A model generated the notes under the pieces. The model worked only from the letters and a program-made list of their open reading frames with translations. It had not been told where the DNA came from and did not search any database. This document shows, one piece after another, positions 8,231 to 40,272 of a stretch of DNA of 64,000 bases. The stretch spans positions 31,682,001-31,746,000 of the forward strand of contig OZ360249.1 in the NCBI GenBank assembly GCA_977017645.1. Direction: 5' to 3'. The stretch is from Torpedo marmorata. Taxonomy: Eukaryota. How positions within the stretch are numbered: position 1 is the first letter of the stretch; each line of letters begins with the position of its first letter. A program made the position numbers and the translations under genes.

Positions 8231-8916
8231 AACTTTCCAAACATGTTGTAACATGATACTGTTATGGACCATGACTGACAGTTTGGACTGCGGACGGTAA
8301 GCAGGAAGGATGAAGTCTTTTGGAGTATACACTGGGACCTGGTACTGAAAGAGTTAACTTGCCCAGGACTTCTTGTATTTACCAGAGAGAGACATCAGGG
8401 GGAGACAAACTGTGGAAAGGACACTTGGTGTAAAACTTTGGACAAAGAGCAGGCTGGAGAGAGTTTCTCTCTATTGTAAGGCCTAAATTGAAAAATTAAC
8501 TCAGTGGAAGTTTTGGAGTTGAAAAGGCGGGAGAACTCAGTAGGATCCAGGCCTGTGCATCCCAGAGAAGAAGTGGGGAGAATAGCACAGAGTCTCTTGA
8601 ATCAGAAAAGTCCAGGCTTGTACATCCCAGAGAGAAAAGGCTGGGAGAAAAACAAGGCCTGATGATTCGGCAGAATCCTGAGTTGTGAAAACAGCTTTTG
8701 TGAGGAACCGGCTGTGAAATCCAAGTATACGCCTTAATCCAAAACGGATTTGAAGTCGCAATCCTTATGAAAACACAAGAAGGGAACGTCATCAGAGAAG
8801 AAAAGCAAGCCAAGTATTCGTGAGCATAAACAGTCATTGTCTCTCTCCAATGTTCATTCAGAAGTACTTCTACCAGCACACAGAGCTGAATTTGGAACCT
8901 GAACTTAGTGAGTGAA

Positions 8917-10439
8917 TTTTTTTTTTTTTTAAATATTTTATTTAAATTTTAAAATCACAAAATACATAGATCGAAAATAATATATCATTCCAAATACATG
9001 TGATATATTTCCTCCCTCCCTCCCACCCTCCCCTCCCCAACCCCCCCACCACTACTCTAAAGAGAAAAAAAAATTTAGTAACAAAGAGAAAAAAAAAAGA
9101 ATAAAAAGAAAAGAGTTGAATAATAAAGAATTAAAGTGAGGAGAAAACAAACTACAAACTAATTCTATTTATATATTGGAGGTTAATTTCGCCAGCGGAG
9201 CCGACTTCCAGAGAATTAATTCATACCCATAATTCTCATATATGGGCTCCAAATTTTCAAAAAGAAATGATATTTATTACGTAGATTGTACGTAATCTTT
9301 TCTAATGGTATACATGAACGTAATTCTGCATGCAATCTATCTCAATTCAAATCTAAATCTGATTTCCAAGTAATAGCAATACATTTTTTTGAAACCGCTA
9401 AAACAATTCGTAAAAATTCTATTTGATACATATTCAATCTATTTCTAATACCAAATTTTTTTATATCTCCAAATAAATATAACATAGGATCCATTGGAAA
9501 CATAATATTAAAAATTCTATCTAAAAAATCTTTAACTTTAGACCAAAAATCCTTAATTTTAGAACATAACCATGTTGAATGAACAAAAGAACCAATTTCA
9601 TCCTTGCATCTAAAACACATATCTGATAATGCCGGATTAAATTTCTTTAATTTTTTAGGTGTTAAATATAATTGATGGAAAAAATTATATTGTACTAATC
9701 TGTACCTAACATTAATAATTTTAGTCATACTCAATTTACATAAATCTTTCCAATGTTTTTCATCTATACTAATATTTAAATCTGATTCCCATTTTAATCT
9801 TGATTTATGGAATCCTACTTTAGGCATTTTTCTCTGAAGTAATTTATACATTTGTGATATAAATTTATTAACATTTCCATTAGTAATTAATAATTCTAAT
9901 CCATCCTGTCTTGGAGCTATTAATTGATTCCCCAATTTCTCAACTAAAAATCCTTTAACCTGATAATAAGCTAAAATTGTATTATCTAATATTCCAAATT
10001 TTTCTTTCAATCTGGAAAATGTAACAAATCTTCCAGCCTCAAAACAATCTTTAATCTTCTTAATTCCTTTTTGAAACCATATTTTTAAAAATTGATTATC
10101 AATAGAAAATGGTAAAAATAGATTTTGATACAGTGGCATATTTGGAGATAATGACCCTTTTCGTCCTATCTCATTATCTAACTGTGTCCAAATTTCCAAC
10201 AAATGTTTAATAATCGGTGAATTTTTCTTTTTAACTAATAATAGTTTAGAATTCCATTTATAAATAATATCTTCTTTATATCTCTCCCCTATATTATTCA
10301 ATTCTATATTAATCCAAGCAGTAGATTTAGTTAAATCAAAAAATTAATTAATAAACTTTAATTGAGCTGCCTTATAGTAATATTGAAAATTGGGGAGTTG
10401 TAATCCACCCATCTCATAATTCCAAGTTAATTTATCCAT
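8917..10439 (-). mobile_element. L1-clade LINE, 5'-truncated (ORF2 C-terminus, G-rich 3' UTR, poly-A)
   Basis: ORF 9342-10301 with CCHC knuckle CFRC..HSTWLC and upstream GGLQLPNF; poly-T at 8917-8930; TSD ACTTAGTGAGTGAA at 8903-8916 and 10440-10453. Confidence 0.9.
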
Positions 10440-10578
10440 ACTTAGTGAGTGAATTTTTGTGGACTGTATTATTTTTTTTTTTTGACTGACTTGTTTTTAT
10501 GACTAACCTGGGGTTTTTGGGGAAAGTTTTTCCATTTTTACATGTGGGTTTGGCACAGACTGTAATGGTCTGGGCTTT

Positions 10579-10601
10579 ACACACACACACACACACACAC
10601 A
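10579..10601. repeat. (AC)n microsatellite within the LTR
   Basis: Perfect dinucleotide run. Confidence 0.9.
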
Positions 10602-11149
10602 TCTTTTAGATAAGAATAGTGTTTATAGACGTTTATAGTGGGGTTAATTGTTGTGAAATTATATGTTTAATTGTATTTAATAAATATAAATTTCAATTTT
10701 ACCCCTTTTGCATTGCGTCTTCTGTCGTTGCTGGTTTGAATTTGTAACAATACTGTTGAAAGTTTGTGTCAAATTTACTAATTATGTGTCTGTATTAATT
10801 TACAAACTCCACTGAGCTTATCGAGAAAACTTCTACCTTCAAATGTGATTATAAGATATTTCGGAAGAAATGATTTTTCACTGCTGCTATTATGTACAAT
10901 CAAAGGCAGGTAACATTTTGGCTCATACTTTCATTGCAGCACAAATAATCAATCATCATGTAGCACACGTGTAAAATAGAAGCCAAAGTTTATCCAGCTA
11001 CTGTTGATGCCATTGCCTTGGAAAGTTTAATTCATTAATAATCTGACTTTGGAGTTTTCCGCCAATATTGCCCCTTTCCAAGAACAAATGTTCTTGATTA
11101 AGAATGATCAAAGTCATAAGCTCGTAATGCGAGCCATCCCAAAATTAAG

Positions 11150-11326
11150 ATAAATAACAGAAAATTTCTGGAGAAACTCAGCAGGTCCCATAGCGTCTAT
11201 ACCTTGATGAAGGATTCAGGCCCAAAACGTTGGTTACATATCTTTGCCTCCTATGGACACTGACTTTCTCCGCCAATTTTGTGTATTTACTACAATCACA
11301 GCATTTGCAGACTTTCTCAATTCACT
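11150..11326 (+). mobile_element. Penelope-derived hammerhead mini-element with inverted 5' arm
   Basis: TSD CCAAAATTAAG at 11139-11149 and 11327-11337; TTGATGAAGGATTCAGGCCCAAAACGTTGG; 5' arm is the reverse complement of the tail. Confidence 0.75.
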
Positions 11327-11988
11327 CCAAAATTAAGGTGCATTTTTAAAAGTTGTAACTGCAATTTACTTGATTCAAATACCACATGGGGATCATGAAA
11401 AAAGCTGAGAAAGATAGCTCCTGAGAAATTTTGCTCCTCCGATAAGTTGGCTCTTCTGCTCAATATTCTTCCACTGACAGATTGGCTGAAATCTAGAGCT
11501 CACTTTGAGGGGGAATGTTGGTAATTTTTTTTTTACAATTAATGCTGAAATGCACATCAGAATGAAGTATTATCATGAAATCTGGCCTGCATTTCATTTT
11601 TCTCTTTCTAATTGTTTAATGTAGATTTATTTTCGTTCCAAATTCACGTACGTTGTGGTTTGAAGGAATGCTATGGAATTCCACACCTTCAAAAGACCAC
11701 CTAAGTAGGCTGCAGAACTGTGTTGGCACATTTGCTTCAGTATGAAGATGGAAATTGCCCCAGTAACGGCAATAACATCAAAATATCAAGATGTGTATAG
11801 CCATTTTCCTACTTTCCCAAGGAGTGCTGTCCCGCCTAATCCCACCCCTTGTGGCATGGGTCAGTCGCCTGATCTTCCACATTCACTGCTCCATGCTTTA
11901 TTTTGCCACTTGAGCATTGCAGGGTCAGTGGTTTCTCAAGTATATCAGATTGAGCCACCATCAACACACCCTGTTGGTTCATCTAAAT

Positions 11989-12363
11989 CAGTGGTTTTCA
12001 AACTGCCCCCTAAACTCACATTCCACCTTAAGTAATCCCTATGCCATAAGTGCTCTGTGATTGGTAAGGGATTGCTTAAAGTGGTATGTGAGTGGAAAGG
12101 GAAGGTTGAGAACAACTGCTATAGACCCAATTGTTACTGAAATATTTTGCTTGAGAAAAATTGTCATTGGCCCATTTCCTTTGGAGTTATGAAACCGTGC
12201 ACATAACGAGTCAATTAGGTACGATTAAAACAGTGGTTTTCAAACTTTTTTCTTTCCACTCACATACCACCTTAAGCAATCCCTTACTAATCACAGAGCA
12301 CTTATGGCATAGGGATTGTTGAAGGTGGAATGTGAGTTTAGGGGGGCAGTTTGAAAACTACTG
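11989..12363. mobile_element. hAT (Charlie-type) MITE, composite of two inverted units of about 130 bp
   Basis: TIR CAGTGGTTTTCAAAC / GTTTGAAAACTACTG; perfect 8-bp TSD ATCTAAAT at 11981-11988 and 12364-12371. Confidence 0.9.
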
Positions 12364-12879
12364 ATCTAAATGTTAAGCAAAGACTCTGTTCATTTGCAGA
12401 TGATTTATTGTTCTGTTAAGTTTTCTAGATTGTGACTTGCTTGTTAGTTTCATCTCCAAGAACCACTCAGTATTGTGGGTTAAAAAATATTTTACGACAA
12501 AAAATGTTTAATATCTGTTACAAAATAAAATCAGCACACACCCATATTGCAAATTTTATAAGCAGTTTGTCTATACCTGTGAGGTAGAAATTAGATTGTT
12601 GCAATGGTGGATGGTGAAAATGGTAAACTTTATCCTTGAAAGAAGTTGGGAAAGACTGGATATTTGTGTCAGGATTTCATTTCCAATCAGGTGAGAGTGA
12701 CACCATTCAGCCATGTCTGACATCTCATCAGTGCTCACCTCAACATGCCTGACTGGCTTAATGTGAATCCACCATTTTCTACTTGGATGATTCTGCTGGT
12801 GCACCGAAAAGAAGGTTTTAGTCAACTTTTATCAAGCACATAACAACAGCAAATGCTCCGAGATATCACAAAATCTCCA

Positions 12880-13330
12880 AAGTCTTCCTACCTTCTGCAA
12901 AGCACTCAGGATGTGATGGAATACTTTCCACTTGGCTGGACAAGGGCAGCTCCATCAGCACTCAAGAAGTTGGACACTAGCCAACTATCCAAGACATTAC
13001 GAATTCACTAGCTCCGCCTGTTCTGTGGCTTCAGCGAGCACTGATTGCACTACAACTCACCAAGGCTTCATTAGCGTCTGCAGCCTTTCTCATCTCGAAA
13101 GATACAAGCAACAGGCACATGGCAACATCACCAAGTCCAAACTCCCATCGAATCACATAGACTAACTAACCAGGACATGTATCACTGTTTCTTCATTATC
13201 TTTAGGTCAAAACCTTGGACCATAGTTCCATGCCTAAAAGTAAATTGGATATACATTCAGCTGTTCCAGGGGGACTGCTCACTTTCACTATTTCAAGGAT
13301 AAATAGGGTTGTGCAATGAATGGTTTTCTT
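12880..13330 (+). mobile_element. Old, degraded CR1/L2-type LINE 3' remnant
   Basis: GGATGTGATGGAATACTTTCCACTTGGCTGGA...CAGCTCCATCAGCACTCAAGAAG; a related remnant lies at 36240-36655. Confidence 0.55.
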
Positions 13331-13647
13331 ACTAAATAGCTAAACAAATAAAAATACTGTGAAATGTACAATGAAATAGTAAAGCATTTTTCATTGCTTC
13401 TTGAAGATTGTCAATCAGGAGTTAATGTAATGAACACTTTTCAAGTGTCTGAAATAAATTATATCAATATGTGCAGGTTGTAGATAATGAATATCTCATG
13501 CCATTTGCTTGAGTGCTTGATAAAATTTGACTAAAACCTTCTTTCATGTACACTATCAGAATCCTGCAGATTGAGAGTGGTGGATTCGCATTAAAACCAG
13601 TCGGACATGGAGGTGTTGATGGTTGTGAACATTGATGAGTTGTCGGA

Positions 13648-14054
13648 CTTGACTGAATGGCGTCACTCTCACCTGAATTAGAATACTACGCTTTTCAATC
13701 TTGCTCCAGATTTTTAAGTGTAAAGTGAAGGCTCGTATTTCTCTGCAGTACCGAGAGAGTAGTACTCTGTTAGATTAGTACTGGGCTCTGACTACACTCT
13801 TAGTTAGACATAAAAGATTACATCAAGGACACCAGCAGAATTTCTCCGAGGGTCCTCTGGAAAACTTTCCTCATCCACGAATTAAAGCAGCAAATCTGCC
13901 CATTTACTTCATTGCTGTTTGGCTACTCTGTGGCATACAAATTGAGTACTGCTTTTCCTATGGTTTTAGTAACTACATGTTCAAAAGTATTCATTTGGCT
14001 GTAGAGATCTCCTGAAATTGTGTGAGGCGCAATAAAAATGTAGGATATTTCTTT
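13648..14054 (+). mobile_element. Degraded DeuSINE-like element
   Basis: Degenerate tRNA-like head, Deu-like core (CATTGCTGTTTG, CAAATTG..TGC..TTTCCTA, TTCAAAAGTA.T..TTGGCTGTA) and GGCGC.ATA.AAATG tail; recognised from recalled consensus. Confidence 0.55.
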
Positions 14055-14729
14055 CAAAAGAGGTCAATTTTAGTTTTAATTGGTTGGGCCAATAAGTATG
14101 ACTTTAGACCAGAGAGGAAGAAAAACAAACAGAAAATGCCTAGCCCTGTGATAACAGTGACTTAGGACAACTATTTTCAGTTTCAACATATGCTGCACAT
14201 TCATTTCAACTAAAGTGCAGTGGTAATGAATGAAAATCTTCCAGGTTTACGTAACAGCTCTTGATAGCTTAATGTTTTGTTCCTGGAAACTCCAGGATAC
14301 TCTGGGAAAATTGGAAGCCCACATTCCATCACAACATTGTTGATCTTCAACACTCTCTGCAGTAGCCTGCCAGACCACACAGCTGTAAAAACGAGGAGCA
14401 AATGAAGGTTCACTTTTACTTTCTGGAAAACAGCAAATAGGCAACATTGCAGTCATTTTTACAGTGCCCACATCTAGTTCAAAAATAAAGAAACTGGGCA
14501 AATTCCAAGATTCTGATTGGTTAAATATATTTTGGTTAAGCACTCAATTTTGTGAAGGAAAATGAGGAAAATTAGCAAGAAGTATGTTACAGTGGTTGGA
14601 AGGGAGACGTTACTTAATAATGTTGGGATTGTGGTGTTGTGGTTCTGGGGTGCCGGGAAAGATCTGGATGTACTGAAAGATAAACTGTTTTGAACTCTCA
14701 AAATACAGGGGAATGATGCGAATCAAAAT

Positions 14730-14975
14730 GGGCATCAAGGTTAGCGTAGCGTTTAGTGCAACGCTATTACAACGCCATCGACATGGGTTAGAATTCGACG
14801 CTGTTTATAAGGAGTTTGTACTTTCTTACCGTGTCTGTGTGGGTGTCCTCCAGGTGCTCCGGTTTCCTCCCACCCTTCAAAAATGTACAGGGTTTGTAGG
14901 TTAATTAGTGTATTCGAGCGGCACGGGCTTGTGGGCCGGAAGGGCATGTCACTGTGCTGTATGTCAAATAAAAAA
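14730..14975 (+). mobile_element. HE1-like V-SINE
   Basis: Head, V-domain and tail match the family. Confidence 0.85.
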
Positions 14976-15329
14976 GTTGTGCGATGGATAGATGGAGATT
15001 GGAGGTGGATGAGGGTGATGTGCTGGAATATCGACATACCTGGAATGACTGAGGAGTGCTCTGGAAACAGTGGTTCTGATGTGGAGTGGAATTTATTAGA
15101 AACTGCTAAGTTCCTACCAGCAGATTGTGTTTTGTATCATAGGCCAAGGAAATGTTTGAGCGCAGATACACATAGAACACTACAGTACAGAAACAGGCCC
15201 TTTCGCGCATCTAGTCCGTGCCGATGGAGATGGGAACATAAAGAAAGTTGCTGGCGACTTGAGTGGGGTGTAAATTCCAGTACATACCTATTTAGGTTAA
15301 TAGTGTTTTTCTATGCAGTAAACTTCGCA

Positions 15330-19426: not shown

Positions 19427-20629
19427 GTAAAAACACAAAATGCTGGAGAAGCTCAGCAGGTCAAACAGTGTCCTTTATGTAGCAAAGGTAAAGATACATA
19501 ACCGACATTTCGGGCTTGAGCCTGTCATCAAAGTATGAGAAAATGCCGGCAGGCATCCGAACAATGTGGGGGGGGGGGGGAAGGGGGGTGGCAAAGGCAG
19601 GAGATGATAGATGGAGAAAGGTGGGAGGGGAGAGCAGCAATGAGAGGGAGGAGGGATGGCTGAGTGGGTAGAAGAACTGGAAGGACAGGGAAGGGGGGAG
19701 GGGAAAGAAAAGGCGAGCAGGTTTAGTGGAAAGCAGAAAAGTCAATGTTAATGCCATCTGGCTAGAGAGTGCCCAGACGGAAAATAAGGTGTTGGTCCTC
19801 CAATTTGCGGGTGGTCTGGGTGGGATAGTACATAAGGCCATGGACAGACATGTGAGTGTGGGAGTGTGACTCGGAAGTGAAATGGTTGGCTACTGGGAGG
19901 TCGCTGTTGTTGCGGACGGAGAGGAGGTGCTCAGTGAAGCAATCTCCCAATCTACGACCGGTCTCTCCGATGTAGAGAATGCCACAAAGGGAGCACCAGA
20001 TGCAGTAAATAAGTTCTCTGGATGTACAAGTGAAGTGTTGTTTCACTTGAAAGGCCTGTTTTGGGTCCCGGACCATGGTGAGGGAGGAGGTGTGGGCACA
20101 AGTGTTGCACCTCCTGTGGGCACAGGGGAAGGTGCCGGGGGTGCGATGGGTGGGGAGGGAGGAGTCCACGAGGGAATCGCGGAGGGAGCAGTCCCTGCGG
20201 AAGGCCAAGAGGGGAGAAGGAAAAATGTGTCTGGTGGTGGGATCCTGTAGTAAGTGCCAGAAATTCCGGTGGATAATGTGTTGGATGTGGAGGCTGGTGG
20301 GGTGGTAGGTGAGGATGAGGGGGATTTTATGTTTGGATGCAGAGGCTGGTGGGGTGGTAGGTGAGGATGAGGGAGATTCAATCCAACACATTATCTGCCG
20401 GAATTTCCGGCACTTACTACAGGATCCCACCACCAGACACATTTTTCCTTCTCCTCCCCTCTCGGCCTTCACTTGTGCATCCACTGAACTTATTTACTGC
20501 ATCCGGTCCTCCCTTTGTGGCATTCTCTACATCGGAGAGACCGGTCGTAGATTGGGAGATCGCTTCACTGAGCACCTCCTCTCCGTCCGCAACAACAGCG
20601 ACCTCCCAGTAGCCAACCATTTCAATTCC
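19427..20629 (-). mobile_element. Penelope-like element with 5' tandem duplication and inverted segment
   Basis: GIY-YIG ORF 19762-20484; 52-nt duplication at 20281-20378; + strand inverted copy at 20381-20629; hammerhead motif at about 19497-19536. Confidence 0.85.
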
Positions 20630-21068
20630 AGAGGTAAAGATATATTACCGACGTTTCGAGCCTGAGCCCTTCTTCTTCAAGGTATAAGCAAAAAACAGGA
20701 AGGAATCTGAATAAAGACCGTAGAATGCCAGAAGATGGGAGTCCAGACCAACAGCCAAAAGGTGTTAATTGGATATGATAAGAGGAAAGGTGAGAAATGA
20801 TTTTGGCTCTGTGAAAGGAGACAGTGGGAAGAGAGAGAGAGAGCGATAAACAGACAGGGGGAAGAAGGGGGGGGGGGGGCGTAGTTTAACAGAAACTGGA
20901 GAAGTCGATGTTAATGCCATCCGGTTGGAGGGTGCCCAGACAGAAGATAAGGTGTTGTTCCTCCAATTTGCAGGTGGTCTCAGTCTTGCAGTGCATGAGA
21001 CCATGGACAAACATGTCAGCAAGGGAATGGGACGGAGAATTGAAATGGGTGTCCATTGGGAGATCCAC
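20630..21068 (-). mobile_element. Penelope-like fragment, second subfamily
   Basis: HFNSPSHSLADMFVHGLMHC...KLEEQHLIFCLGTLQPDGINIDFS; hammerhead motif at about 20641-20685; near-match to 55614-55994. Confidence 0.8.
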
Positions 21069-21406
21069 GCTATTACAGTGGACAGAACCGAGGAAAATCC
21101 AGCCCATAGTTGTAAACATACTTCCAAACATTGATTTTTCTAATTATCTAAAATAACTGAGCTTGACTCAATAGTGATGGTATCCTGCCCCAGACTGAAA
21201 TCTCATTATTCCTTCCACCTCCTGAATCACACAAGCATTCATTGTGGTTCTATGACCGAATAACATTTTGGTTTCAACTATCCCTCTTTTCTATTTTCTC
21301 TTCACTTTGCTGCCTTACTCTGCCTTCCCCCGCTTGTTGTTTTTAAAATCCTCACAGCCATTACTCCCCAGCTTCTTCTCAATTTCTTCACTGAGACAAT
21401 CTACCA

Positions 21407-23012
21407 AAGACCCGACCAGTCACCCTCTACCACCACCCTCCTCCGCCTGGCAGAACTTGTCCTCACTCTCAATAACTTCTCCTTCAACTCATCCCACTTC
21501 CTCCAAATCAAAGGAGTAGCCATGGGTACCCGCATGGGTCCCAGCTACGCCTGCCTGTTTGAGAGCTTTATGGAGCAATCCATGCTGCAAGCCTGCACAG
21601 GCAAGACCCCTCATCTCTTCCTCCGGTATATCGACGACTACATCGGGGCTGCCTCATGCACCCGCGATGAGCTTGTCAACTTCATCCACTTCGCATCCAA
21701 CTTTCTCCACGATCTCAAACTCACCTGGTCCATCTCCGATAACACTCTCCCCTTCCTGGATCTCTCTGTCTCCATTCGGGAGACAAGCTTTCCACCGACA
21801 TTTACTACAAACCCTCCAACTCCCACAACTATCTGGACCACACATCCTCACACCCTGTCCCCTGCAAGGACTCCATCCCCTTCTCTCAATTTCTCCGCCT
21901 CCGCCGCATCTGTTCCCAAGATGAGGTGTTCCACTCCAGATCTTCTGAAATGTCTGCCTTTTTCCACAAACGTGGCTTCCCCTCCACCACCATCAACTCA
22001 GCCCTCACCCGCATCTCCTCCATTTCCCGCTCATCTGCCCTGGCCCCCTCTGCCCCCAGACGCAACAAACATAGAATCCCCCTCATCCTCACCTACCACC
22101 CCACCAGCCTCCGCATCCAACACATTATCCGCCGGAATTTCCGGCACTTACTACAGGATCCCACCACCAGACACACTTTTCCTTCTCCTCCCCTCTCGGC
22201 CTTCCGTAGGGACCGCTCCCTCCGCGATTCACTCGTGCACTCATCCCTCCCCACCCATCGCACCCCCGGAACCTTCCCCTGTGCCCGCAGGAGGTGCAAC
22301 ACCTGCGCCCACACCTCCCCCCTCACCACGGTCCAGGGCCCCAAACAGGCCTTCCAAGTGAAACTACACTTCACTTGTACATCCAGAGAACTTATTTACT
22401 GCATCCGGTGCTCCCTTTGTGGCTTTCTATACATTGGAGAGACCGGTCGTAGATTGGGAGACCACTTTGCTGAGCACCTCCTCTCCGTCCGCAACAACAG
22501 CGACCTCCCAGTAGCCAACCATTTCAATTCCGGATCACACTCCAACACTCACATGTCTGTCCATGGCCTTATGTACTATCCCACCCAGACTACCCGCAAA
22601 TTGGAGGAACAACATCTCATATTCCGTCTCGGCACTCTCCAGCCAGATGGCATTAACATTGACTTTTCTGCTTTCCACTAAACCTGCTTGTCGTTCCCTT
22701 CCCCTCCCCCCTCACCTGTCCTTCCTGTTTTTCTCCACCTACCTAGCCATCCCTCCTCCCCCTCTTTGCTGCTGTCCCCTCCCTCCTTTCTCCACCTATC
22801 ATCTCCTGCCTTTGCCATCCCCCTTCCCCCCTCACTCCTTTGTTCGGACGCCTGCCGGCATTTTCTCATACTTTGATGAAGGGCTCAAGCCCGAAACGTC
22901 GGTTATGTATTTCTACCTTTGCTACATAAAAGACACTGTTTGACCTGCTGAGTTTCTCCAGCATTTGTGTTTTTTACTTCAACCACGGTGTCTACAGATT
23001 TTCGTGTTTTAC
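21407..23012 (+). mobile_element. Penelope-like element, longest copy (RT C-terminal half, GIY-YIG endonuclease, 3' end)
   Basis: KGVAMGTRMGPSYACLF, FLRYIDD and LPFLDLSV RT motifs; frameshift near 21780; ORF 21926-22681 with LIYCIRC...YIGETGR. Confidence 0.92.
22867..22907 (+). ncRNA. Minimal type I hammerhead ribozyme motif in the Penelope 3' end
   Basis: Stem I CATACT/GGT(T)ATG, core TTGATGA, stem II GGGC-TCAA-GCCC, GAAA, palindromic ACGT stem III; predicted cleavage after GTC at 22900. Confidence 0.75.
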
Positions 23013-24224
23013 TTACCTTTCTCCCAATCTCTCTATGATTCGTTCCTAATGATTTTAATCTCTTTTACAATTCATCATTCATTTCCCCTTTTATTCTATG
23101 CTCACCGAATATTTTTACCAAATAAAATCTCATATGTAAATAAAAAATTGACCATTTCCTTGTATCCTTTGATGCAAATCTTTCTATCCCTTTCCATCCC
23201 TCCTAATTCATCCCTGGAAAGGATAATCCAACCACACAATTTCCCTGGTTCGTTTTGACCTCCCATTTGTTATAATATTTTGGCTATCAGTCTGCACAAT
23301 CACTTTTAAAATGGCCAGTGAAATGTCTTGAGTTTTCTTTCATAACCAGCTGTTCACTGGGCTAAAGAAAGTAGTGTAGATCTTCACACTCCATTATCAA
23401 ACCTGAACACCCAGACAGAATTATCATGAAGAAAAGGTAAATTTCACTCATCGTTCTTGCAAATCCAACTTTGCCACTCAGATAGGCTCGATCCATTAGC
23501 TTCCTCTGCTTTTCCTTGGCCACCAAGTGAAACGTTAATCGCACAATAACCTTTATTTTACACACTTTTCTAATTTCTCACTTGTCTTTGCTCATGTTCA
23601 CTTAGGGCTCAACTTGTACATGACTGAAATTCTGCTTTTTTGGCTCTCCAGATCACCCAAAGCACTGCTTCTCCCAGCTGCCTTTTTAGTGGCTACTATT
23701 TTTTTCATTTTCTACTCCCCTTCCTTTCAGAACAGACATTATACACCTCATCTCAAAGCTCACATTGAACACTTGCCTCTGTGAACAACCTTCAGAAACA
23801 TCTTTCCTTTCAAAATCCTTGAAGATTTAAAACATTTTAATTCTTTACCCATCTTTGTCATCAATGAACATTTACAAATTTCAGGATAGTTTTCCCCACC
23901 AGTCATAATAAAATGCAATTACACAGGTGCATTTTCCTTATTTGCAGTTTGACAATATTGATCTTACCACATTCATTCAATATTTTTCAAATGTCTGCCT
24001 GAGACTGCTTATCATAACATTCAAATCAGTAGATGCATCTGCAGAAATGACTTCCTTTGAAGTCCATATTACTGTTACCTCCAAAGTCTCAAGAAGCTAT
24101 CTTTGTTCTAATTGATTCTCATCACGGCCTCCGTAATGGCAACTGAGGATGTGGAGCAAGCGCCTACAGGTATACTGACATCCTTAAGTCCCATCCTTCC
24201 ACCACACCAGATACTTTACTACTT

Positions 24225-25278: not shown

Positions 25279-25384
25279 AGAGTAAAATCACAGGTATGCT
25301 GGAGGAACTCAACAGGTCTCGCAGCGCCATAGGAGGTAAAGATATATAACTGATGTTTTGGGCCTGAGCCCTTCTTCAAGGTAT
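25279..25384 (-). mobile_element. Penelope hammerhead mini-element
   Basis: TSD GTCTTTTC at 25271-25278 and 25385-25392; minus strand ATACCTTGAAGAAGGGCTCAGGCCCAAAACATC. Confidence 0.75.
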
Positions 25385-26684: not shown

Positions 26685-27099
26685 AAAAAGCCTCCATGCA
26701 ACTAAATTGGCCTGGAAGGCATCGCATCCAATTCATTAAAGTAGTTTTGATCTTGCATTAATGTCTTTCACTGCAGTCTAGCTCTGGGAAGCGGTGTGGA
26801 AAGGGGGTACTTTAATCCAAAAGCTTTTTTCGAGGCAACACATTGCAGTTCCCCATGAGTCAGGATGCTGATCAAAAGGCTGACCTGCCATAATAGGAAA
26901 AATCCGGCCTGACAGTGAGGTCAGCCTGAAGTGGACGCACTAGTGTTTGCATTGAAGACTCAACACGTGTTGGTAACGGAACTATCATTACCACAATAAG
27001 AAGAAGGAGAAGGAGAAAAAAATAACCTAAAATAAGAAAACTGTTCGGCAAAAGTAAATAAGGAATTAGTAAGAAAGCCTCCACCCCACCCTCTTCCTG

Positions 27100-27705
27100 A
27101 GACGGGCTCCAACTCCCGAATGCCAGATCCCGGTCCCATTGGCTCGCTCAATCTATCTCCACCCCATTGTCAGGCAAGGTGCGCCAATGATTGGTCCAGC
27201 CGACTGTCAATCAAGCGGCCGGACACCAAAGTTGGCCTGCCCTCAGTCACCATGACGTCATTCGCAGGTGTGGAGAAATTAGCTCTGCGAAATTTTTTTT
27301 TTGGGCTCTCTAACGCACAAAAAGCGACGTGATTAAAGCTGGAAATATGAATTCACCCCTTGATTATTTCTCTCTGCCTCAAAACGTGGCCGCAATCCTC
27401 AGCCGTCCCGGGGCCGCACGGCGAAGGCACCGACCCCCGCGGCGCAAAGCGTTTGACGTCCGATCAGAGGAAAAAAAGGTGCCGGGCGCCACTGCGCGGT
27501 GCTCCGCCTCTGGAGAGAAAATAGATCCAGCGTTTCAACCAAGAGGGAAGCCGCCAGCAGGCCCCAAGAACCGGGGATTCGGTGCAAACTGCCACAATGC
27601 AGTGTGAACGTTAATCCCGAATGCAAGCTGGAGCCAGAGTGTCGGTTTTGGGCGTTTCCCGTGGCGGCGGAAGGAGGCGAAGCGCCCGCGGTTGTCAGAG
27701 AAGGG
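27100..27705 (+). promoter_or_regulatory. CpG-island promoter and probable first exon of an unidentified + strand gene
   Basis: Only CpG-dense non-repeat region; ATTGG at 27138, CCAATGATTGG at 27184-27194, CTGTCAATCA at 27204-27213, TGACGTCA at 27253-27260; donors GTAGGT at 27706 and GTGAGT at 27805. Confidence 0.7.
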
Positions 27706-30700
27706 GTAGGTCTGTGTGTGTGTGTGTGGGAGACTAAAAATAGCAACATTGTATCTTTTTTATACAATTATTCATTTCGCGGCTGATACAGTATCCTCTG
27801 ACTGGTGAGTAAAAATAGCAACATTTCTGCTTCCCCCCCCCCAGCCACCCAAATGTATCTGCTTGGCAGAGAAATTGGAGCATGTTTGGTGGAGATTTGC
27901 CTTTCCTGCCCCAGAGTAATGACAGGCACTGCAGCATCAGAGCTTGGGGGAGCTTACTTTATGTAGAACAGTGGCAATAATCCCTCAGAGTGCCTACCGA
28001 CTATTTTGAAATATATATTTAAAATATATATGCATTGGCAAGGGGGGGGAAATCACGCCCCACGTCCCCACCCCCTCTCCTTGGGATCATTCTCGAGGTG
28101 ATGTGACAGTGGGAATGAGTTCTACTCTGTAATTAACCCGGAAATATTCTGGCATTTCTTTTTCTACCCCATCCCACTCTTGAAGGATTTTTTTTCTGAC
28201 AGTTGAGGAGAAAGTGATGGTGTGCGGCGAACACTCAGAGGTGTAAAAGTTTGGAACACGATTGTCAGGGCCGCCGTCAAAGAGGCAGGAATCAGTAAGT
28301 TCAACCAAACTATTTTTTAAAAAAATAATATTTTTGGGGGTGGGGGGAACGGAAGCTTTACTCTGTATTTTCTTTCAAAGCGGCCCATTTGATTTTGGGG
28401 GGGATTGCCTCATGATTGTGTAAATGCTCTCTTTCACATCCCCGATCTACGTGATCAGTAAATGGGCAAAATAGCCCTGTTGGCTGTCATGTGTTCTTCA
28501 GGGAGACGCGAAAATTGCCCTGTTATGAAGTAATCCATCCAGTTTCCAAAACATTCAGTTACGCGTGCGAGCCAGACGGTCTCACTGAAAGCATTAATTC
28601 AGTTAGTATTCATAACGCAGCCTCTTAAATCCCCACATCGCTTTATTGTAATTGGGCAGTGAGATGAATGTCCTATACAACTTAATAGCTTGACAGATCA
28701 GCTGAATCGTCATGGAGAATGTAATTTTATTGCGAAGTTCTCATAACCAGTCGTGGATATGGTGCTTGTTGTTGATTTTGCCACTGATATTTTTTCAATG
28801 GAACAACCTTCTGCATCTATTTACGTTTAATCCCATAAATACTCTTGTATATCCGGACCATTATAATACGTCAAAATTTCATAAAATGTTTATTTTTGTG
28901 TGAAATTCGCTCATGCTTCTGTGATCGTCCCTCCTTGGTGTTCATCGTTGCTGAAGCTCTCAATGCAGCTTTAAATAAAACAATAATTGATCTTAATTTT
29001 TTTTTTTAATGGGCTGACTGAAAATTGTTTTGGATTCTTGATGGCTGCGCTCGTGGTATTACTTGTTAAAGGTCACGTTTGTTACATGATGTATCACAGA
29101 TTTGTTTTGTCATTTGTAATGTAATATAATATTGTGAACCTGGTGGTCAAAGTTAGTAAGAGCTCTTTAGTAGGCAATAATCTTAATGTGTGAGATGGGC
29201 AAGACTGGCATTAAATTACAGTAGAGACATCTACAGCTCGAATTGTATATGTATAGATAGACGTTGTGTTAACATTTTTATGCATTATATACATACTAAA
29301 TTCTGGCATTTTCTGATCTGTTGTAAAATACGTTGCAATAAATGAATTTATTGTATTACATTAGCTGCTTAAACATACAACGTGGAAAATTCATAAGTAC
29401 TTGTATTTTCAGACTGAAGTGTCAACAGATTTTGAATTAAATGTTCCTGAAAGCATGAAGAATGTGGCTTGTTTCTTGTATGTTCGAGTAATTTTTGCAC
29501 TCACTTAAAATATATCCAGAATTACGTTTCTTCTAAAGGGAAGTAAGTAGTGAGTTCTGGTGATGTGTGGGTCAATGAAAGGATTCTGTAAACATGAGGA
29601 TTTGATCAGTGTGGCTTGGTACAATAATATGCACAGACATCCTGTCGTGTAACAAGAAATTGGGAAGTAATTGGCTTGGAGTTTTGAAACAAAAATAACA
29701 ATTTGAAATGTGAAATACCAAGCGGTAATTTGTTTTGATTTTTTTTTTTCAAGGAAAGTCACAATATACGAAGGTTAATGTCATTAACAGAATAGCACAT
29801 TATGCCTGTGGCCCACGATTGAAAGTCTTCCATTGAATCTATCTACCAAAAGTGGGATGAACTGCAGTGGTATAAACAATTTTAACTAAAAGTTTAAAGA
29901 TACTGACTTTTAATATTTCTTGTTAAAGTTGAATTTTCACAAGTCGATCAAAGTTTTTGTTGATTGATTTTGAATTTGCCGTGATGACAGTTGGACCTTC
30001 TCTTGAAGATTTTGAATCACAACAGTGTAGTATTCCTAGATTTGGTGAACTGCTATATTTAGATAACATGACTGATTATCTTGCATTTTGTTTGGATGAA
30101 CATTGTAGCTTGGGTTGTGAAAGTTTGAGGAAGTCCTGATGTGACAGGTGGTACATAAATGTAAATTTATTCTCAACTTGATATTTAAGTATTAAATATT
30201 TGAACTTGGAAGCAGCATCTAAAAACATTTTTTTATTCTAACTGGATGTGTTCAGGAAATTGAAGACATAAATTTGTAGTTTTACGAGATGGTGCAGTTT
30301 TACTGAATTGATGTTTGCATCATCTTGAAGATTCAATTATTTTAAGTAGTATAACGATGTTCTGGAAAGTTTAAAATCAATATCAAGGAAGTTCAAAATG
30401 TTGAAATAAGCATTTATTATGCTTTTCAAGCCAGCTCAAAATGTGGCCTCTACATTAAGTATAAGGTTGTAATGCCCAATGGAACACCATAGACATGGGG
30501 AAGTTCATATAGTTGTAACACAGCATGTGTCTTTTATTGCACATTTTGGCAGTAGATTTAAGTTTCTGCACCTGCATCTGGGTTTCTGAATTATACATTG
30601 TGGTGAGATTTGTAGCTGCCAAATCCTGTCAGAACTCAGGCTGTTATCAACAAAGCTTTATTTTGGTCCCTCTTTTCTGTAATAAGACTCGGTGCAAAAT

Positions 30701-33700: not shown

Positions 33701-34290
33701 AGGTCTTCTGCACGTGCACGGCAGGGCAGGAATAGGAGTGTACATCCATTTTCCCCATTCAGACTCTGGAGTTCAGGAAACATTTGCTTTTCTTACTGAG
33801 CTGAAGGTTCTGATGCCCCCTGTTACTGCCCCTTTGGCTTTTCTCCAAGTATAGCTGGCATCTGGAGTGTGGATCACTGGCCTTATTTTTAAAAATGTGC
33901 TTTTGAAAAATTAATACTATTGTTTTAAATTTGCATCAGATGAAAATGCTTCATATGCCTCTATTCTTGTTTTATTGATTTTTAATTATGTTTTAGTTAC
34001 ATGTTTTTGAACTGTTGAGTCACGGTTAAATCTCATGGCAACTCGTCATCAGAAGGCCATCTGGGCTGTCTTAGTTTCCTCTTCTTGCATTACTGGTTGT
34101 GGCTTGCGGATCATTCCGCCTCATGGAATGGCTGTGGCAGTAGAAGCTTGGGAGCTGCATGGCTGCGGAAGGGAAGTGTGACTCTAGGGATCCTGCAAAA
34201 GGCAGACACAAAGTGTGGATTGGGTTCAGCACAAACTGGCTTCTTAATATTAATAATCAAACAAGCCACTTACTTTTGCAATTCAACTAA

Positions 34291-34548
34291 GGGCGGCATG
34301 GTTAGCGTAGTGGTTAGCGCATCGCTGTTACAGCGCTAGCGACCCGGGTTTGAATCCGGCGCTGCCTGTAAGGATTTTGTACGTTCTCCCCATGTCTGAG
34401 TGGGTTTCCTCCGGGTGCTCCAGTTTCCTCCCACCCTTCAAAACGTTCCGGGGTCATAGGTCAATTGGGTGTAATTTGGCGGCACGGACTCGTGGGCCGA
34501 AAGGGCCTGTTAGCGTGCTGTATGTCTAAATTTAAAAATAAAAAAAAA
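34291..34548 (+). mobile_element. HE1-like V-SINE, near-consensus
   Basis: GGGCGGCATGGTTAGCGTAGTGG head, GGTTTGAATCC B box, V-domain and tail. Confidence 0.9.
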
Positions 34549-36239
34549 GAGATTGTGCTGTATTCCCTCGATGTGGCTAACTTAAAGCTGAGGGGGTCAG
34601 GTAGAAGGACTCTCTGATCTCATCTCAGAATGATCTGGAAGTTCAGAGACAGCGGGAGGTCGCATGCTGGCTTGTAATCTCCAGTGTGCTCTGTTCTTCA
34701 TGCCTTGGTGTGCAGGCTCATGTGCATAGTGATTTAATCTCCCTGGTGGGTTTCTGTTGACAGCCTTGGTTATCTTTATGCTGTAGTTATCAGTGTAGCC
34801 ACAGGAACTGGTGAGGATTTATTAAACCATTATTTCTTTATCCTTCATCGGGCAGCTAGCTTTATCTAGTCTGCTACCAGTAGTGAAAATGTAGATGCGT
34901 ATTAATCCACAAGTTTCTTCATTATAATGGGAATAAATGTTGGTAGATGGTTAAAGTATTTCAGCTACTGATGTGTTTCAGGACGTATACATGATGTTGA
35001 CCAATTTTATGCACATACATTCAGGTGTTTGAATTTAAATGGCCATCCTATCCTAGCCCTGCAATGACACCAAATTTTTCTGATTCATCCTTGCCATAAT
35101 TTTTCAGCCTTTCATTTGTACACAGTAATGTGGAAGACTTTTTAGCCTCTTGTGCTGTTATCACAATAAACTTTATTGAAATTACCACGATACTTGCACT
35201 ATTTATGATTAATTATTAATACAGAACCCAATTTCCTCACTGTTCCATGGAGCAGGTGCATCTAAGCTTAACACACCCTAGAATATTGGTGACTCGTATC
35301 ATCCAATTGGCTTTGGCGAAAGACATAGAAGCTCGCATGTTTCAATGGATCATGAGTATCAAACATCGGTGGATTTTGTTCATAAATTGAATGCTCAAAA
35401 TCTTTGAACTTGTTTTCCGGCAGCATTTAATATGATTTGTGGAATAATTTTAATGATTCTGATAACTTTTTTGCCAAATTTACAAGGATGAAATCTAATG
35501 GATTTTGAATTCATGCTAGTTGGCATTTGGACCTCATTGACGTTTGCTTGGAGAATATATTTTATTGTTCCTCCTTTGCTAGTTGAAAATTGGGCTTTTT
35601 GATCGTGGGTTCTATTTTACAGATGTACAATCTTAGTTACCTTTGTATAGTATTCAGTGTACACTTTTCTTGAATATTTTAAGAATTTTTCAATTTTGAT
35701 CCTGATACCTCCCATTTTTTTTTTGTAATTTCTCATTGCATGAGAAGTTGCCTGAGGTGTCTGTTCAATGTAACCAATGATCTTTCTAATTAAGTTTAAC
35801 CCTTTAACCAACATTCAAGATTAATTTTTCCTTGTGAAATAATTTTTCAATAATCTGAAATATTGTACTAATGGAACTCTTTTCTAATCTAATGATTTGT
35901 GCATGTACGTCTTGTTGAATAATACCAGTGGAGCTTTGCTACTTGTTAAAACGTGACTGCTTGAATTCATGAGAACTTTGCACTCAGCTGTGCTGAGAAT
36001 TGCTATAGTGGAAGTGTCAGACAACTATAAGAATTAATTCATGTTCATGATAAGTGTGTCACTGTTGTCAAGTATTGCTTGTATCAATTGCGAATGACGA
36101 ATCATTTCAGGATTGTAAAGTAATGGGGCAGATGACATTTAAAATTTATCTGGACATTGTGGATATAAGAACAATTCAGACGGTGGATATTTTGGATTAG
36201 TTTATTGTGCAAAGCCAATGTACTGTCCTCCAGAACAAG

Positions 36240-36655
36240 CCAAGGTGATGAAACACCCCTCGCTTGCCTGGACGAGTGCACTACAAAGATGCTTGAGCTT
36301 ATCCAGGACAAAACCTGACTTGCGTATAAAGCACCATTCTAAATATTTGCTTTCTTCACTGTGATGCACTGTAATTACTGTCTGTACCAGCTGAAAAATG
36401 AGCGAGAACAATTTGCCAAGTTTTCTTCAGCAACACATCCCTATCTGATGACCTCTAACATCTAGAAAAGCAAGCACATTAGCAGTGTGGGACAACTGAT
36501 AGCTGCAAGTTTCCCTCAAAATTGCAGACCACTCTGACTTAGAAAATCTATTTCTGGTACTTCAGTAGGTTAAAATAATGGCCCCTACTGCATAACACCA
36601 CTGGAGCTCTTCATTGCTAGGACTTGCAGCCGTTCATAAAATGATGGCTCGTTGC
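36240..36655 (+). mobile_element. Old CR1/L2-type LINE remnant
   Basis: Similar to 12880-13330 (GCTTGCCTGGACGAGTGCA...ATCCAGGACAAA). Confidence 0.5.
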
Positions 36656-36679
36656 ATTATTCTCGAAGACAATAAGAAG

Positions 36680-37016
36680 CATAGAACATTACATCACAGG
36701 AAACAGGCCCTTTGGCCCTTCTAGTCTGTGCTGAACTATCATTCTGCCTAGTCCCACTGACCTGCACCCAGTCCATACCCCTCCCATCCATGTACCTGTC
36801 CATTTTTCTTTTAAATGTGAAAATTGAGCCCACATTCACCACTTCAGCTGGCAGATCGTTCCACACCTCCACTATTCTCTGTGTGAAGAAGTTCCCCCTG
36901 ATGTGCCCCCTTAACTTTTCCCCTTTCACCCTTAACCCATGTCCTCTGGTTTGTACCTCACCTAACCTCAGTGGAAAAAGCCCACTTGCATTTACTCTGT
37001 CTGTAACCTCTCATAA
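36680..37016 (-). mobile_element. CR1 (HER1-like) LINE 3' fragment
   Basis: RGNFFTQRIVEVWNDLPAEVV; tail AAGGGCCAAAGGGCCTGTTTCCTGTGATGTAATGTTCTATG. Confidence 0.85.
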
Positions 37017-37543
37017 TTAGGGATGGTCATTAAATCTTTTCCTTCTCCAGCCAGTCTTCCTTCCATTTAGTGGAAGGAAGTAAACATTAGGCAATTAGTA
37101 GATTACAAAAGGAGTAAAGCCTAAAATTATTTGGTGGTTACCACATAAAGGCAGAATCTCTCTGGTATAATTACTCATTCTTATTCACTCTTTGCTGAAC
37201 AGGTGCCTTTACTGTAACTCCAAGTTCATAGACACCCCCTCACATTTTCTACAAGCAAAGTGAGTAAGGATTTATTTTTCTGCTTTCATTCCAGTACCAA
37301 GGCCAATGAGAATCTAATTTTGGAGCCAACACTGCAGATGATGGCAATCGAAAACAGAAAATGCCAGAACCATGCAGCTGTTCAGGCAACATTCATGGAT
37401 ACTGAAATGACTGTTCTGATGAAGTGTCTTTGACCTGAAATACTGATTTGCGTTTTTCCGTTCCCAGATGCTGACTGACATGCTGAGTGTTTTAGACATG
37501 TAACGGATGTGTTAATGTTAATATTAATATTTAAAGTTAAGTT

Positions 37544-38487
37544 TTTTTAAAATATTTTATTTAAAATTTTTAAATCACACAATACACAGTTTAAAACGCA
37601 AATTTCTCAAATTACATGTGATACATTTTCACCCTCCCTCCCTCTCTCCCTCCCTCCCCTCCCGAAAAGAAAGAAAGAAGAAGAAAAGGATAGAGTAAGG
37701 AGAATGTCAATCTAAAAAGAACAACTATAAACTGATCTTATTGTGGAGGATAGGCTCGCCAGCCAGACCCGATGTCCAGAGATCTTCAAATCCTTAAACC
37801 AACTATTTTTATGTATGGGCTCCATACTTCCAAAAAGAAATGATACTTATCACGTAAATTATATGTGATTTTTTCGAGTGGTATGCATGAACGCAATTCT
37901 GCGTGCCATCTTTCCAACCCTAAATCTACATCCGACTTCCATGTAGTGGCAATACATTTCTTAGAAACGGCTAAAGTTATACGTAAAAATTCTGTCTGGT
38001 ACATATTTAATTTCACTTTAACACTGGTTCCTTCAATATCTCCAAACAAAAATATCATAGGATCCATTGGAAGTGTAGTTCCTAATACTTTATCTAAAAA
38101 TTTTTTAACTTTCAACCAAAAATCATAAACTTTTGGACAAAACCATGTAGAATGTACAAAAGAACCTTCCTCTATATTACATCTAAAACATAAACCAGAT
38201 AATGTCGGATTAAATTTCTTTAGTCTTTTAGGTGTTAAATATAGTTGATGAAAAAAATTATATTGCACCAATCTATATCTAACATTAATAATCTTCGTCA
38301 TACTTTGTTTACATAATTTTTTCCAGTGTTCTTCATCTATTGTTACATTCAAATCTTTTTCCCAATTTAATCTTGATTTATGAATTCCTGTTTTAGGAAG
38401 TTTCCTCTGTAACAATCTGTACATTTGAGAAATAAATTTAGGCACTCCTCCATTAGTAACTAATAATTCCAATTCAGTCTGTCTTGG
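37544..38487 (-). mobile_element. L1-clade LINE 3' fragment
   Basis: ORF 37786-38472 (CFRC..HSTWFC); 17-bp TSD ATATTTAAAGTTAAGTT at 37527-37543 and 38488-38504. Confidence 0.9.
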
Positions 38488-39197
38488 ATATTTAAAGTTA
38501 AGTTATAGAATTATATTTCTTAGTAAGGGTAGTTGTGGGCTGGTACAGGGTCACACACAGGTCACAGCACATTTGCAGGAAAAACCCATTACTCAGAGAA
38601 AGAGTTCAGTTTGGAGTCGTCGCGTCTAAGAAGACAACAGCCAATAATGAAACAGAAGTGCATTTAAGTGATTTAAGGACAATATGTGGTTTTTAAAAGC
38701 CTTATGATAGCAGCTGTTGCAAACTCAAGTGCCACTTGAGTGACATGTGCCAGACTATTCGGAGTCCTAATCACTTATAATCTTGGAACAGGGATGTGGT
38801 CAGATGTTTTTGTAGATGTAAGTGATTTTGAAGAAAGGCATGAAGTAATGCTTTTGAAAATGAAACTAAAACTGTGGTGATGTAATGTCACATGATGAGA
38901 GAAATATATAATGAAGGGAGAGGGACATTTTGAAAGAAACAGACTGCACCAGACTAAAGAAACTCTGACACTTTGGAAGGACAAAGAAAAAATCTGAAGA
39001 ACTTTGATATTCTGGAAAGGCAGAATCATTTTATGAGCAGTGATCTCTGAGTGGATGGAGGTGTTGTTTCTGTGTATTATCCTTATCATAGGAGATACAC
39101 CATATAAGTGGCTTTTAAAATAAGTAAGACCACTTTCAAATTGTTTCTAAGAAAAGAGGACATCACCGTATGTTACTCCTGATCAAGAAAGAAATCA

Positions 39198-39813
39198 ATG
39201 GTTTTGTCCAAAAGTTTATGATTTTTGGTTGAAAGTTAAAAACTTTTTAGATAAAGTATTAGGAACTACACTTCCAATGGATCCTATGATATTTTTGTTT
39301 GGAGATATTGAAGGAACCAGTGTTGGAGTGAAATTGAATATGTACCAGACGGAGTTTTTGCGTGTTGCTTTGGCCGTTTCTAAGAAATGTATTGCCACTA
39401 CATGGAAGTCGGATGTAGATTTGGGGTTGGAAAGATGGCACGCAGAATTGCGTTCTTGCATACTACTCGAAAAAATTACATATAATTTACGTGATAAGTA
39501 TCATTTCTTTTTGGAAGTATGGAGCCCATGTATAAAAATTGTGGGTTTAAGGATTTGAAGATCTCTGGTCATCGGGTCTGGCTGGCGAGCCTATCCTCCA
39601 CAATAAGATCAGTTTATAGTTGTTCTTTTTAGATTGACATTCTCCTTACTCTATCCTTTTCTTCTTCTTTCTTTCTTTTCGGGAGGGTTAGGGAGGGGAG
39701 GGTGGGGGGGAGGGGGGGGTGAAAATGTATCACATGTAATTTGAGGAATTTGCGTTTTAAACTGTGTATTGTGTGATTTAAAAATTTTAAATAAAATATT
39801 TAAAAAAAAAAAA
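39198..39813 (+). mobile_element. L1-clade LINE 3' fragment
   Basis: ORF 39229-39558 is nearly identical to the end of 37786-38472; poly-A; 13-bp TSD AAGAAAGAAATCA at 39185-39197 and 39814-39826. Confidence 0.9.
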
Positions 39814-40272
39814 AAGAAAGAAATCATCGTGAAGATCACAGTTCCGTAACCCTAACAAGAAAGGGGGAAACTTGTGAACACACTCGTATGAAGACTATCT
39901 CTGAAAGACCACTCATCAACAGACGTGTGAGTTTGAAAGAAATCGAATACTCCATTCTTGCTTTATAATAACTTCTGAATCACAATTTAAAGGGATCCTG
40001 AAGATCAACAAAAGAAGTTGGAAACTGGACTTTAAAAATGGACTTTTTCAGATTTAAGTTTAAATTGAAACAGTTTGGACTTTAACACACACACACATTT
40101 ACATTTGCGCATAGTGGGGTTTAAGTTAGAGTTAAGTTTAGAAATAAGTAGGATATGCTATGTTATTAATAGTTTAAATAAAAAACTATTTTTGAATTTA
40201 CCATTGTCTGGTGCATATTCCATTGTTGTTCCTTTGTTAGTACTAACAGGGTTTGTTAGCTCGTAACAAAAT

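Follow-up and report, generated by a model that had tools for sequence, protein, structure and literature searches.

Does L1 of Torpedo marmorata choose the LTRs of other retrotransposons as landing sites? Site choice of vertebrate L1 is generally treated as following a loose T-rich endonuclease motif. In the window, by which we mean the whole stretch of 64,000 nucleotides analyzed here, three L1 copies (L1a, L1b, and L1c) lie inside two Gypsy-type LTRs (LTR1 and LTR2). LINEs with such habits have been described outside the vertebrate L1 lineage. The accessible text of Kojima 2015 (PMC4494074) lists two crocodilian Tx1 families with a preference for LTR retrotransposons, Tx1-8_Crp and Tx1-4_AMi, and calls a family target-specific when one target type occupies more than 20% of its flanks. 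The same text places Xenopus Tx1 in Tx1D, Tx1-Mar in Mariner-N4_AMi, and Tx1-9_AMi in Harbinger. TRE5 and TRE3 of Dictyostelium belong to the L1 clade and target regions by protein tethering, which for TRE5 involves an ORF1–TFIIIB contact, according to the accessible part of PMC5911963.

Two unrelated LTRs in the window

LTR1 (8260–10749, forward strand) is a solo Gypsy-type LTR of ~950 bp without its insert. Its ends are of the TGTTA...TAACA type, a 4-bp target duplication, ATAC, flanks it (8256–8259 and 10750–10753), and a poly(A) signal is located at 10679. The traits of a Gypsy solo LTR, namely TG...CA ends, a 4-bp duplication, and a poly(A) signal close to the 3′ end, are thus all present.

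LTR2 (37499–40268, forward strand) is the LTR at the 5′ end of a decayed Gypsy element of the Gmr1-like type and measures ~1,180 bp without its inserts, with a TATA-like motif at 38905 and a poly(A) signal at 40177. It is directly followed by a forward-strand motif that we take to be a PBS (40273–40282) and by a broken gag (40353–40939, forward strand) that contains two breaks in ~195 codons, one frameshift and one in-frame stop, and is cut off by a SINE fragment. The gag piece is 62–76% identical to five Gypsy proteins, and two gag relatives, P0169 and P0171, are SCAN-bearing polyproteins with the order SCAN, integrase, RT, and RNase H. Integrase ahead of RT is a Gmr1 trait. By its gag relatives, pol being absent from the window, the LTR2 element can be assigned to the Gmr1-like Gypsy group. 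It resembles the Gmr1-like Ty3/Gypsy elements in the accessible text of PMC3424704 and PMC4131045 in that its gag is related to polyproteins that bear SCAN and have integrase ahead of RT but, unlike them, it is truncated in gag.

A search of the window with Gypsy polyproteins gave a match only at the LTR2 gag. LTR1 and LTR2 have no blastn match to each other, which marks them as two unrelated LTR families. Their 3′ ends have in common a (CA)n tract, the poly(A) signal, and the terminal motifs, and only by such shared LTR motifs is LTR1 presumptively assigned. Scanning the window for LTR-like ends with a target-site duplication (TSD) returned eight candidates, of which only LTR1 was accepted and the other seven were dismissed by eye as chance; this census was made without a repeat library, and an old LTR could have gone unrecognized.

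Structure and clade of the L1 copies

L1a (8917–10439, reverse strand) is a 5′-truncated L1 that lies antisense in LTR1, with 310 bp separating it from the LTR 3′ end. It consists of the C-terminal part of ORF2, with two in-frame stops, a 3′UTR, and poly(A), and is bounded by an exact 19-bp TSD (8903–8921 and 10440–10458) whose first copy blends in part into the poly(A) run. LTR2 harbors two further 5′-truncated copies, each formed by the ORF2 C-terminus, 3′UTR, and poly(A). L1b (37544–38487, reverse strand) is antisense to LTR2, 28 bp from the LTR 5′ end, with an exact 17-bp TSD (37527–37543 and 38488–38504), whereas L1c (39198–39813, forward strand) is in sense orientation, with the TATA-like motif ~280 bp upstream of it and an exact 13-bp TSD (39185–39197 and 39814–39826). 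The original prediction of three TSD-bounded L1s within Gypsy LTRs is therefore confirmed, each copy having its own perfect duplication. Neither L1b (0 of 230 codons) nor L1c (0 of 116) contains an ORF2 stop. L1b and L1c are 94.7% identical, and L1a is 76.5% identical to L1b at the nucleotide level, so that the three copies represent two families.

The C-terminal ORF2 pieces are 46–50% identical to a full-length relative, P0159, which among PDB entries matches human L1 ORF2p best (E = 1.6e-182), and zf-RVT matches in the pieces are weak. For the nearest full-length ORF2 relative, 45% identical in the C-terminal part, the endonuclease shows a gap-free alignment with human L1 EN across the C-terminal hairpin region. 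In the target-specific Tx1 clade, the specificity-determining endonuclease hairpin is unlike that of L1. Vertebrate L1-clade traits are present as well: a poly(A) tail, a variable TSD, 5′ truncation, and a loose Y/AA nick. Judged by this L1-type relative, RT being absent from the window copies, the window L1s most likely belong to the L1 clade and not to Tx1.

A tblastn comparison of four full-length L1 ORF2 proteins with the window found only L1a, L1b, L1c, and a fragment at the window edge, plus one weak cross-match to a Rex1-type RT; ORF1 and EN of these L1 families are absent from the window. The edge fragment, a fourth L1 (1–144, reverse strand), is 5′-truncated at ~144, has its 3′ end beyond the window, and is 88% identical to L1a and 82% to L1b. 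Its context had been described as invisible, which is only half true: the 5′-side flank (145–365) can be seen, and it matches neither LTR1 nor LTR2.

Excess of L1 in LTRs

Without their inserts the two LTRs occupy 2,128 of 60,724 bp, or 3.5% (earlier estimate: ~2.1 kb and ~3%). With n = 3 L1s in one window picked after the fact, the probability of finding 3/3 in LTRs by chance is 4.3e-5; counting the fourth L1 (3/4) raises it to 1.7e-4, and taking all other detected repeats out of the target gives 9.5e-5 (3/3) and 3.7e-4 (3/4). Both LTRs of the window carry L1. The copies in LTRs amount to 3/4, in this window alone, against the >20% of flanks used in the accessible text of PMC4494074. Three L1s in ~3.5% of the window hint at an L1 preference for Gypsy LTRs; three cases are no proof.

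The simplest alternative is that L1 is blind to LTRs and that the window was noticed for a rare coincidence combined with local clustering. Two of four random points fall within 700 bp of each other in 13% of trials, and if L1b and L1c are counted as one clustered event, P rises to 1.2e-3 to 3.6e-3, or one window in 278–833. Three points fall in any single repeat class with a chance of 1.6e-3, and the survey spans some 250,000 windows, vertebrate in part. Against this stand the strict nulls (4e-5 to 4e-4) and the presence of L1 in both LTRs, and we regard coincidence as unlikely. The odds of two biased models over no bias are ~50:1, given priors of our own choosing (0.70 for none, 0.20 for a five-fold, and 0.01 for a strong bias).

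Endonuclease-site density was rejected as the cause of the excess: of five Y/AA-type site patterns, four are only 1.0–1.3 times as dense in the LTRs and one is less dense there. SINE, Penelope, Rex1, and CR1 are missing from the LTRs (0 of 50 pieces, with overlaps counted), as had been noted. We rejected this as support for an L1 preference because the 35 pieces that these four families contribute lead one to expect only ~1.2 insertions (P0 = 0.29), making their absence uninformative.

Insertion sites share little sequence

The L1s sit at position 643 of 953 in LTR1 and at positions 28 and 725 of 1,180 in LTR2, non-homologous sites entered in both orientations. The three TSDs have only Y/AA at the nick in common, which bears out the claim that they share little sequence. 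With two L1 families (76% identical), non-homologous positions, and both orientations, the data speak against a single recognized sequence. They show neither the shared target sequence or position of Tx1-type specificity nor a TRE5-like fixed distance and orientation, both of which vary.

A Tx1-like endonuclease reading a defined site that is present in LTRs by coincidence is very improbable. In its favor, the flank of the fourth L1 agrees in register with the L1a target at 17/30 positions over its initial 30 nt (empirical p 0.003–0.02, with the comparison length chosen afterwards), and no other pair from different loci is as similar as these two L1s (88%). The non-homologous sites and the L1-type character of the closest full-length relative argue against it.

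Passive carriage and differential retention as possible alternatives

L1 pieces could also have entered donor LTRs elsewhere and spread by Gypsy retrotransposition, with no new L1 event here. Inside one LTR, L1b and L1c are arranged as an inverted pair of 600 bp, which would yield a double-stranded substrate if transcribed. Relative to L1b, L1c has a cluster of 9 A>G and 1 A>T changes within 48 bp (39325–39372, forward strand), which could be ADAR-like or a sequencing error. The inverted pair and the ADAR-like cluster fit carriage, and an insert present in both parent LTRs would stay in a solo LTR. However, carriage would be needed in two unrelated LTR families, and nearly every A>G change lies in a single arm: L1c has 11, L1b at most 3 compatible ones. 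In addition, the sense poly(A) signal of L1c comes a short way after the putative LTR promoter and should cut the genomic RNA short. The open frames of L1b and L1c, compared with the two breaks in gag, fit a later arrival of L1, although not significantly. Taken together, we consider carriage quite unlikely.

Differential retention supposes random insertion followed by purging elsewhere, through ectopic recombination or effects on transcription, and persistence in silenced LTRs. The accessible text of PMC5381506 reports that stickleback and anole L1 copies are almost never fixed and ascribes the contrast to mammals to ectopic recombination, and nesting rates in human vary with target class (PMC2836564, accessible part). 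Retention is nonetheless improbable: protection would be needed at a ~1 kb scale, and young Penelope and Rex1 copies survive outside LTRs in the same window.

Searches outside the window

A metagenome scan retained eight loci from 465 pattern matches, all distant L1s (39–60% amino acid identity). No LTR piece, gag, or pol match was found at these loci (0/8), of which only two have a 3′ tail with flank. Rfam gave 0 matches, a viral-contig scan 0/166, and a "longer" protein search with L1a 0 of 2,580 candidates. Sampled words of 37400–40400 were common to two public runs (0.58 and 0.30), an observation that we do not count as evidence. A literature search, with most subscription journals outside its reach, found no report of an LTR preference of vertebrate L1 proper.

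Discussion

We favor, at a probability of roughly 45%, ordinary in-place L1 insertion combined with a region-level bias towards LTRs. The LTRs would have come first and the L1s later, in three independent, ordinary target-primed insertions; each L1 is 5′-truncated, ends in a poly(A) tail, and has a loose Y/AA nick site and a TSD of 13–19 bp. Two or more L1 families of this genome would enter Gmr1-type Gypsy LTRs above LTR abundance, as 3/4 copies suggest, through a bias that acts at the region level and not on DNA sequence. The likeliest scenario is that the L1 particle preferentially meets LTR chromatin in the germline, drawn by an accessible promoter region or by a host factor bound to LTRs. 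Such a contact could be modeled on the L1-clade element TRE5-A, whose ORF1 contacts TFIIIB at tRNA genes. In strength, the bias may lie anywhere from a few-fold preference to true tethering. The original proposal of an LTR-directed L1 lineage survives in part: the window does contain an excess (p between 4e-5 and 4e-3 under the different nulls), but not of one lineage, since two families entered two unrelated LTR families.

The stronger version, possible though doubtful, is that a branch of true vertebrate L1 (not Tx1), here in a cartilaginous fish, uses a protein of its own as a tether to some host factor or chromatin mark carried by Gmr1-type Gypsy LTRs. Several families would then insert mostly in LTRs of unrelated sequence, parasitizing and maybe disabling the promoters of another class.

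Within the accessible text of PMC4494074, crocodilian Tx1 elements are likewise LINEs that prefer LTR elements, but they are of the Tx1 clade and use particular LTR groups, whereas the window has two L1-clade families in two unrelated LTRs at non-homologous sites. Tx1, Tx1-Mar, and Tx1-9_AMi likewise use another transposon as a safe landing site; their targets, however, are DNA transposons with preferred positions (~300 bp from the 5′ end for Tx1-9_AMi), and the window L1s share no position. TRE5, as presented in the accessible part of PMC5911963, exemplifies the tethering proposed here, there with an ORF1–TFIIIB contact and here putative; it differs in its fixed distance and orientation to tRNA genes. 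Ordinary non-mammalian vertebrate L1 shares the AT-rich ORF2, zf-RVT C-terminus, short 3′UTR, poly(A), TSD, and several divergent families per genome, and the accessible text of PMC5381506 describes no LTR preference for it.

Should genome-wide enrichment be absent, the finding would be ordinary nesting. If true, an L1 branch steered to LTRs of unrelated families would join the Dictyostelium TREs as the second L1-clade example of targeting guided by protein or chromatin. It would provide a natural model for L1 retargeting and would be an instance of LINE and LTR parasites interacting directly.

L1 insertions in two Gypsy LTRs

Four full-length L1 ORF2 queries detected only L1a, L1b, L1c and a fourth L1, the fragment at 1–144 (minus strand), plus one weak RT cross-hit. 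L1a (8917–10439, minus), L1b (37544–38487, minus) and L1c (39198–39813, plus) are 5′-truncated L1 3′ ends bounded by exact TSDs of 19, 17 and 13 bp, respectively. L1a lies in LTR1 (8260–10749), and L1b and L1c both lie in LTR2 (37499–40268); all these coordinates proved correct on checking. The three copies represent independent target-primed insertions into LTR sequence already in place. Their ORF2 pieces are 46–50% identical to P0159, a full-length unnamed ORF2 whose best solved-structure match is human L1 ORF2p (E = 1.6e-182) and whose endonuclease aligns with human L1 EN without gaps across the C-terminal hairpin region. Judged by this ORF2 likeness, the window L1s are L1-clade elements. 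Identity is 76.5% between L1a and L1b and 94.7% between L1b and L1c, so at least two L1 families are present; the fragment at 1–144 is 88% identical to L1a and 82% to L1b. L1a has two in-frame stops, L1b and L1c none. At 10440–10478, in-frame translation of the L1a TSD and adjoining LTR bases gives residues much like those of the ORF2 stretch whose place they take, pointing to microhomology at the L1a 5′ junction. L1b and L1c (37544–38146 and 39198–39813) form a 600-bp inverted repeat, 95% identical and ~1 kb apart within a single LTR; any transcript reading through both could fold into a long RNA hairpin.

LTR1 is a solo LTR, because its terminal bases are inverted and a 4-bp duplication flanks both ends. 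LTR2 is followed by a PBS-like motif and a broken gag with one frameshift, one stop and an end cut away by a SINE. This partial SINE terminates gag at 40935–41073; the window contains no pol or 3′ LTR beyond, which suggests their loss by deletion. The last gag piece is 62–76% identical to five of eight candidate proteins, two of which are polyproteins with the domain order SCAN, integrase, RT, RNase H. Integrase ahead of RT is a Gmr1 trait. The source of SCAN is described as a Gmr1-like Gag (PMC3424704). LTR1 and LTR2 do not match each other by blastn; their 3′ ends have in common a (CA)n tract, a poly(A) signal and terminal motifs. Passive carriage of the L1s by Gypsy amplification is quite unlikely, since two LTR families would both need it and L1c brings a sense poly(A) signal close to the transcript start.

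The nick sites of the three L1s have nothing in common but Y/AA. L1a sits 643 bp into LTR1 (953 bp), and L1b and L1c sit 28 and 725 bp into LTR2 (1,180 bp); two are antisense to their LTR and one is sense. The insertions use no single target sequence or position, and sequence-specific nicking is very improbable.

Excess over chance

LTRs make up 2,128 of the 60,724 bp of window target, giving P = 4.3e-5 for three of three L1s in LTRs and 1.7e-4 for at least three of four. With every other detected repeat removed from the target, these values become 9.5e-5 and 3.7e-4. The original prediction held the context of the fourth L1 to be out of sight; its 5′-side flank (145–365) in fact lies within the window. 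Because this flank matches neither LTR1 nor LTR2, the tally is 3/4 with the fourth copy unclassified. In register, 17 of its first 30 nt agree with the L1a target (145–176 and 10438–10467 compared; empirical p 0.003–0.02), a weak hint of likeness. The flank also contains a short inverted repeat.

Endonuclease-site density is ruled out as the cause of the excess, as LTRs hold only 3.0–4.5% of nick sites over five motif versions. Chance with clustering is unlikely but gains from two sides: P is only 1.2e-3 to 3.6e-3 if L1b and L1c are one event and 1.6e-3 for three points landing in any one repeat class, and the window was singled out post hoc from a very large scan. A model comparison with author-chosen priors favors five-fold or strong bias over no bias by ~50 to 1, a sum that excludes clustering and carriage, which were weighed separately. 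SINE, CR1, Rex1 and Penelope copies are indeed absent from the LTRs, as first claimed (0/50 pieces, overlaps included). This lends little support, since the expectation from the 35 pieces in these families is only ~1.2 (P0 = 0.29). Differential retention of L1 copies is a decidedly unlikely source of the excess.

A cluster of A>G changes in L1c

L1c and L1b were compared over 458 aligned bases, covering the ORF plus unique UTR but neither the purine tract nor the tail. Relative to L1b, L1c shows 11 A>G, 0 G>A, 3 C>T and 0 T>C changes, together with 6 transversions. Nine A>G changes fall within 48 bp (39325–39372; cluster p = 5e-6); the top same-type 50-bp cluster is 6/11 or 6/13 in five control pairs, versus 9/10 in L1c. 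The 5′ neighbor is U at seven of the 11 sites (p = 0.017) and G at none (p = 0.06), and ADAR favors such neighbors. One A>G outside the cluster replaces a Tyr by Cys; this change is derived in L1c, because L1a and P0001, a protein from the searches, both keep Tyr. L1a has G at some other A>G sites, hence polarity is not set for all. A>G clusters are described as an ADAR hallmark, and systematic sequencing errors also yield same-type clusters (PMC2873906); the L1c cluster reflects either a sequencing error or RNA editing that reverse transcription made permanent. Editing of the L1c template RNA, or error, would fit better than copying of an edited L1b–L1c hairpin, because the L1b arm has at most three compatible changes.

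Genomic setting and relatives

The window is animal DNA of 40% GC, rich in repeats and, by its sequence features, perhaps from a cartilaginous fish. Those besides L1 and Gypsy we take, from sequence features, to be SINE, Penelope-like, Rex1-like and CR1-like. Penelope-like copies at 19427–23014 are nested and inverted, some pieces inserted into each other, with a long open frame at 21743–22681. The CpG-rich stretch at 27000–28300 resembles a promoter: it has CCAAT and CRE-like motifs, and candidate splice donors lie near 27706 and 28296. A plus-strand gene probably has its 5′ end here, in which case LTR2 would be intronic.

Protein searches returned only distant relatives. A metagenome scan gave eight loci out of 465 pattern matches, 39–60% identical; a 3′ tail with flank is visible, by reading, in two (L002 and L005). 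None of these eight loci, from other lineages and other hosts, matched an LTR piece, gag or Gypsy polyprotein, and a scan of viral contigs yielded 0/166. At locus L003, the full-length L1 has a second, distant L1 piece (122–694) immediately upstream, in head-to-head orientation.

Possible targeting of LTRs by L1

The Tx1 clade of LINEs is reported to include members preferring other transposons, with Tx1-8_Crp and Tx1-4_AMi directed to specific LTR retrotransposon groups (PMC4494074). The window L1s work like such TE-targeting LINEs but differ from Tx1-type specificity in lacking a shared site. Tethering is described as established for TRE5, an L1-clade element of Dictyostelium (PMC5911963). 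TRE5 keeps a fixed offset to its target, unlike the L1s in LTR2: L1c lies ~280 bp downstream of a putative promoter marked by a TATA-like motif at 38905, and L1b at the extreme 5′ edge. Strong tethering of the L1s to LTRs is doubtful. In humans, nesting hotspots and class biases are described as common (PMC2836564), and the listings from our literature searches included no report of LTR preference in vertebrate L1 proper.

The original prediction proposed a single L1 lineage directed to LTR retroelements. The single lineage gives way to the two or more families, and the mechanism is unproven; the pattern of L1s in Gypsy LTRs is real and unlikely. We favor, at a probability of about 0.45, a region-level preference of L1 for these LTRs, mediated perhaps by promoter chromatin that is accessible in the germline or by a host factor bound to the LTRs.
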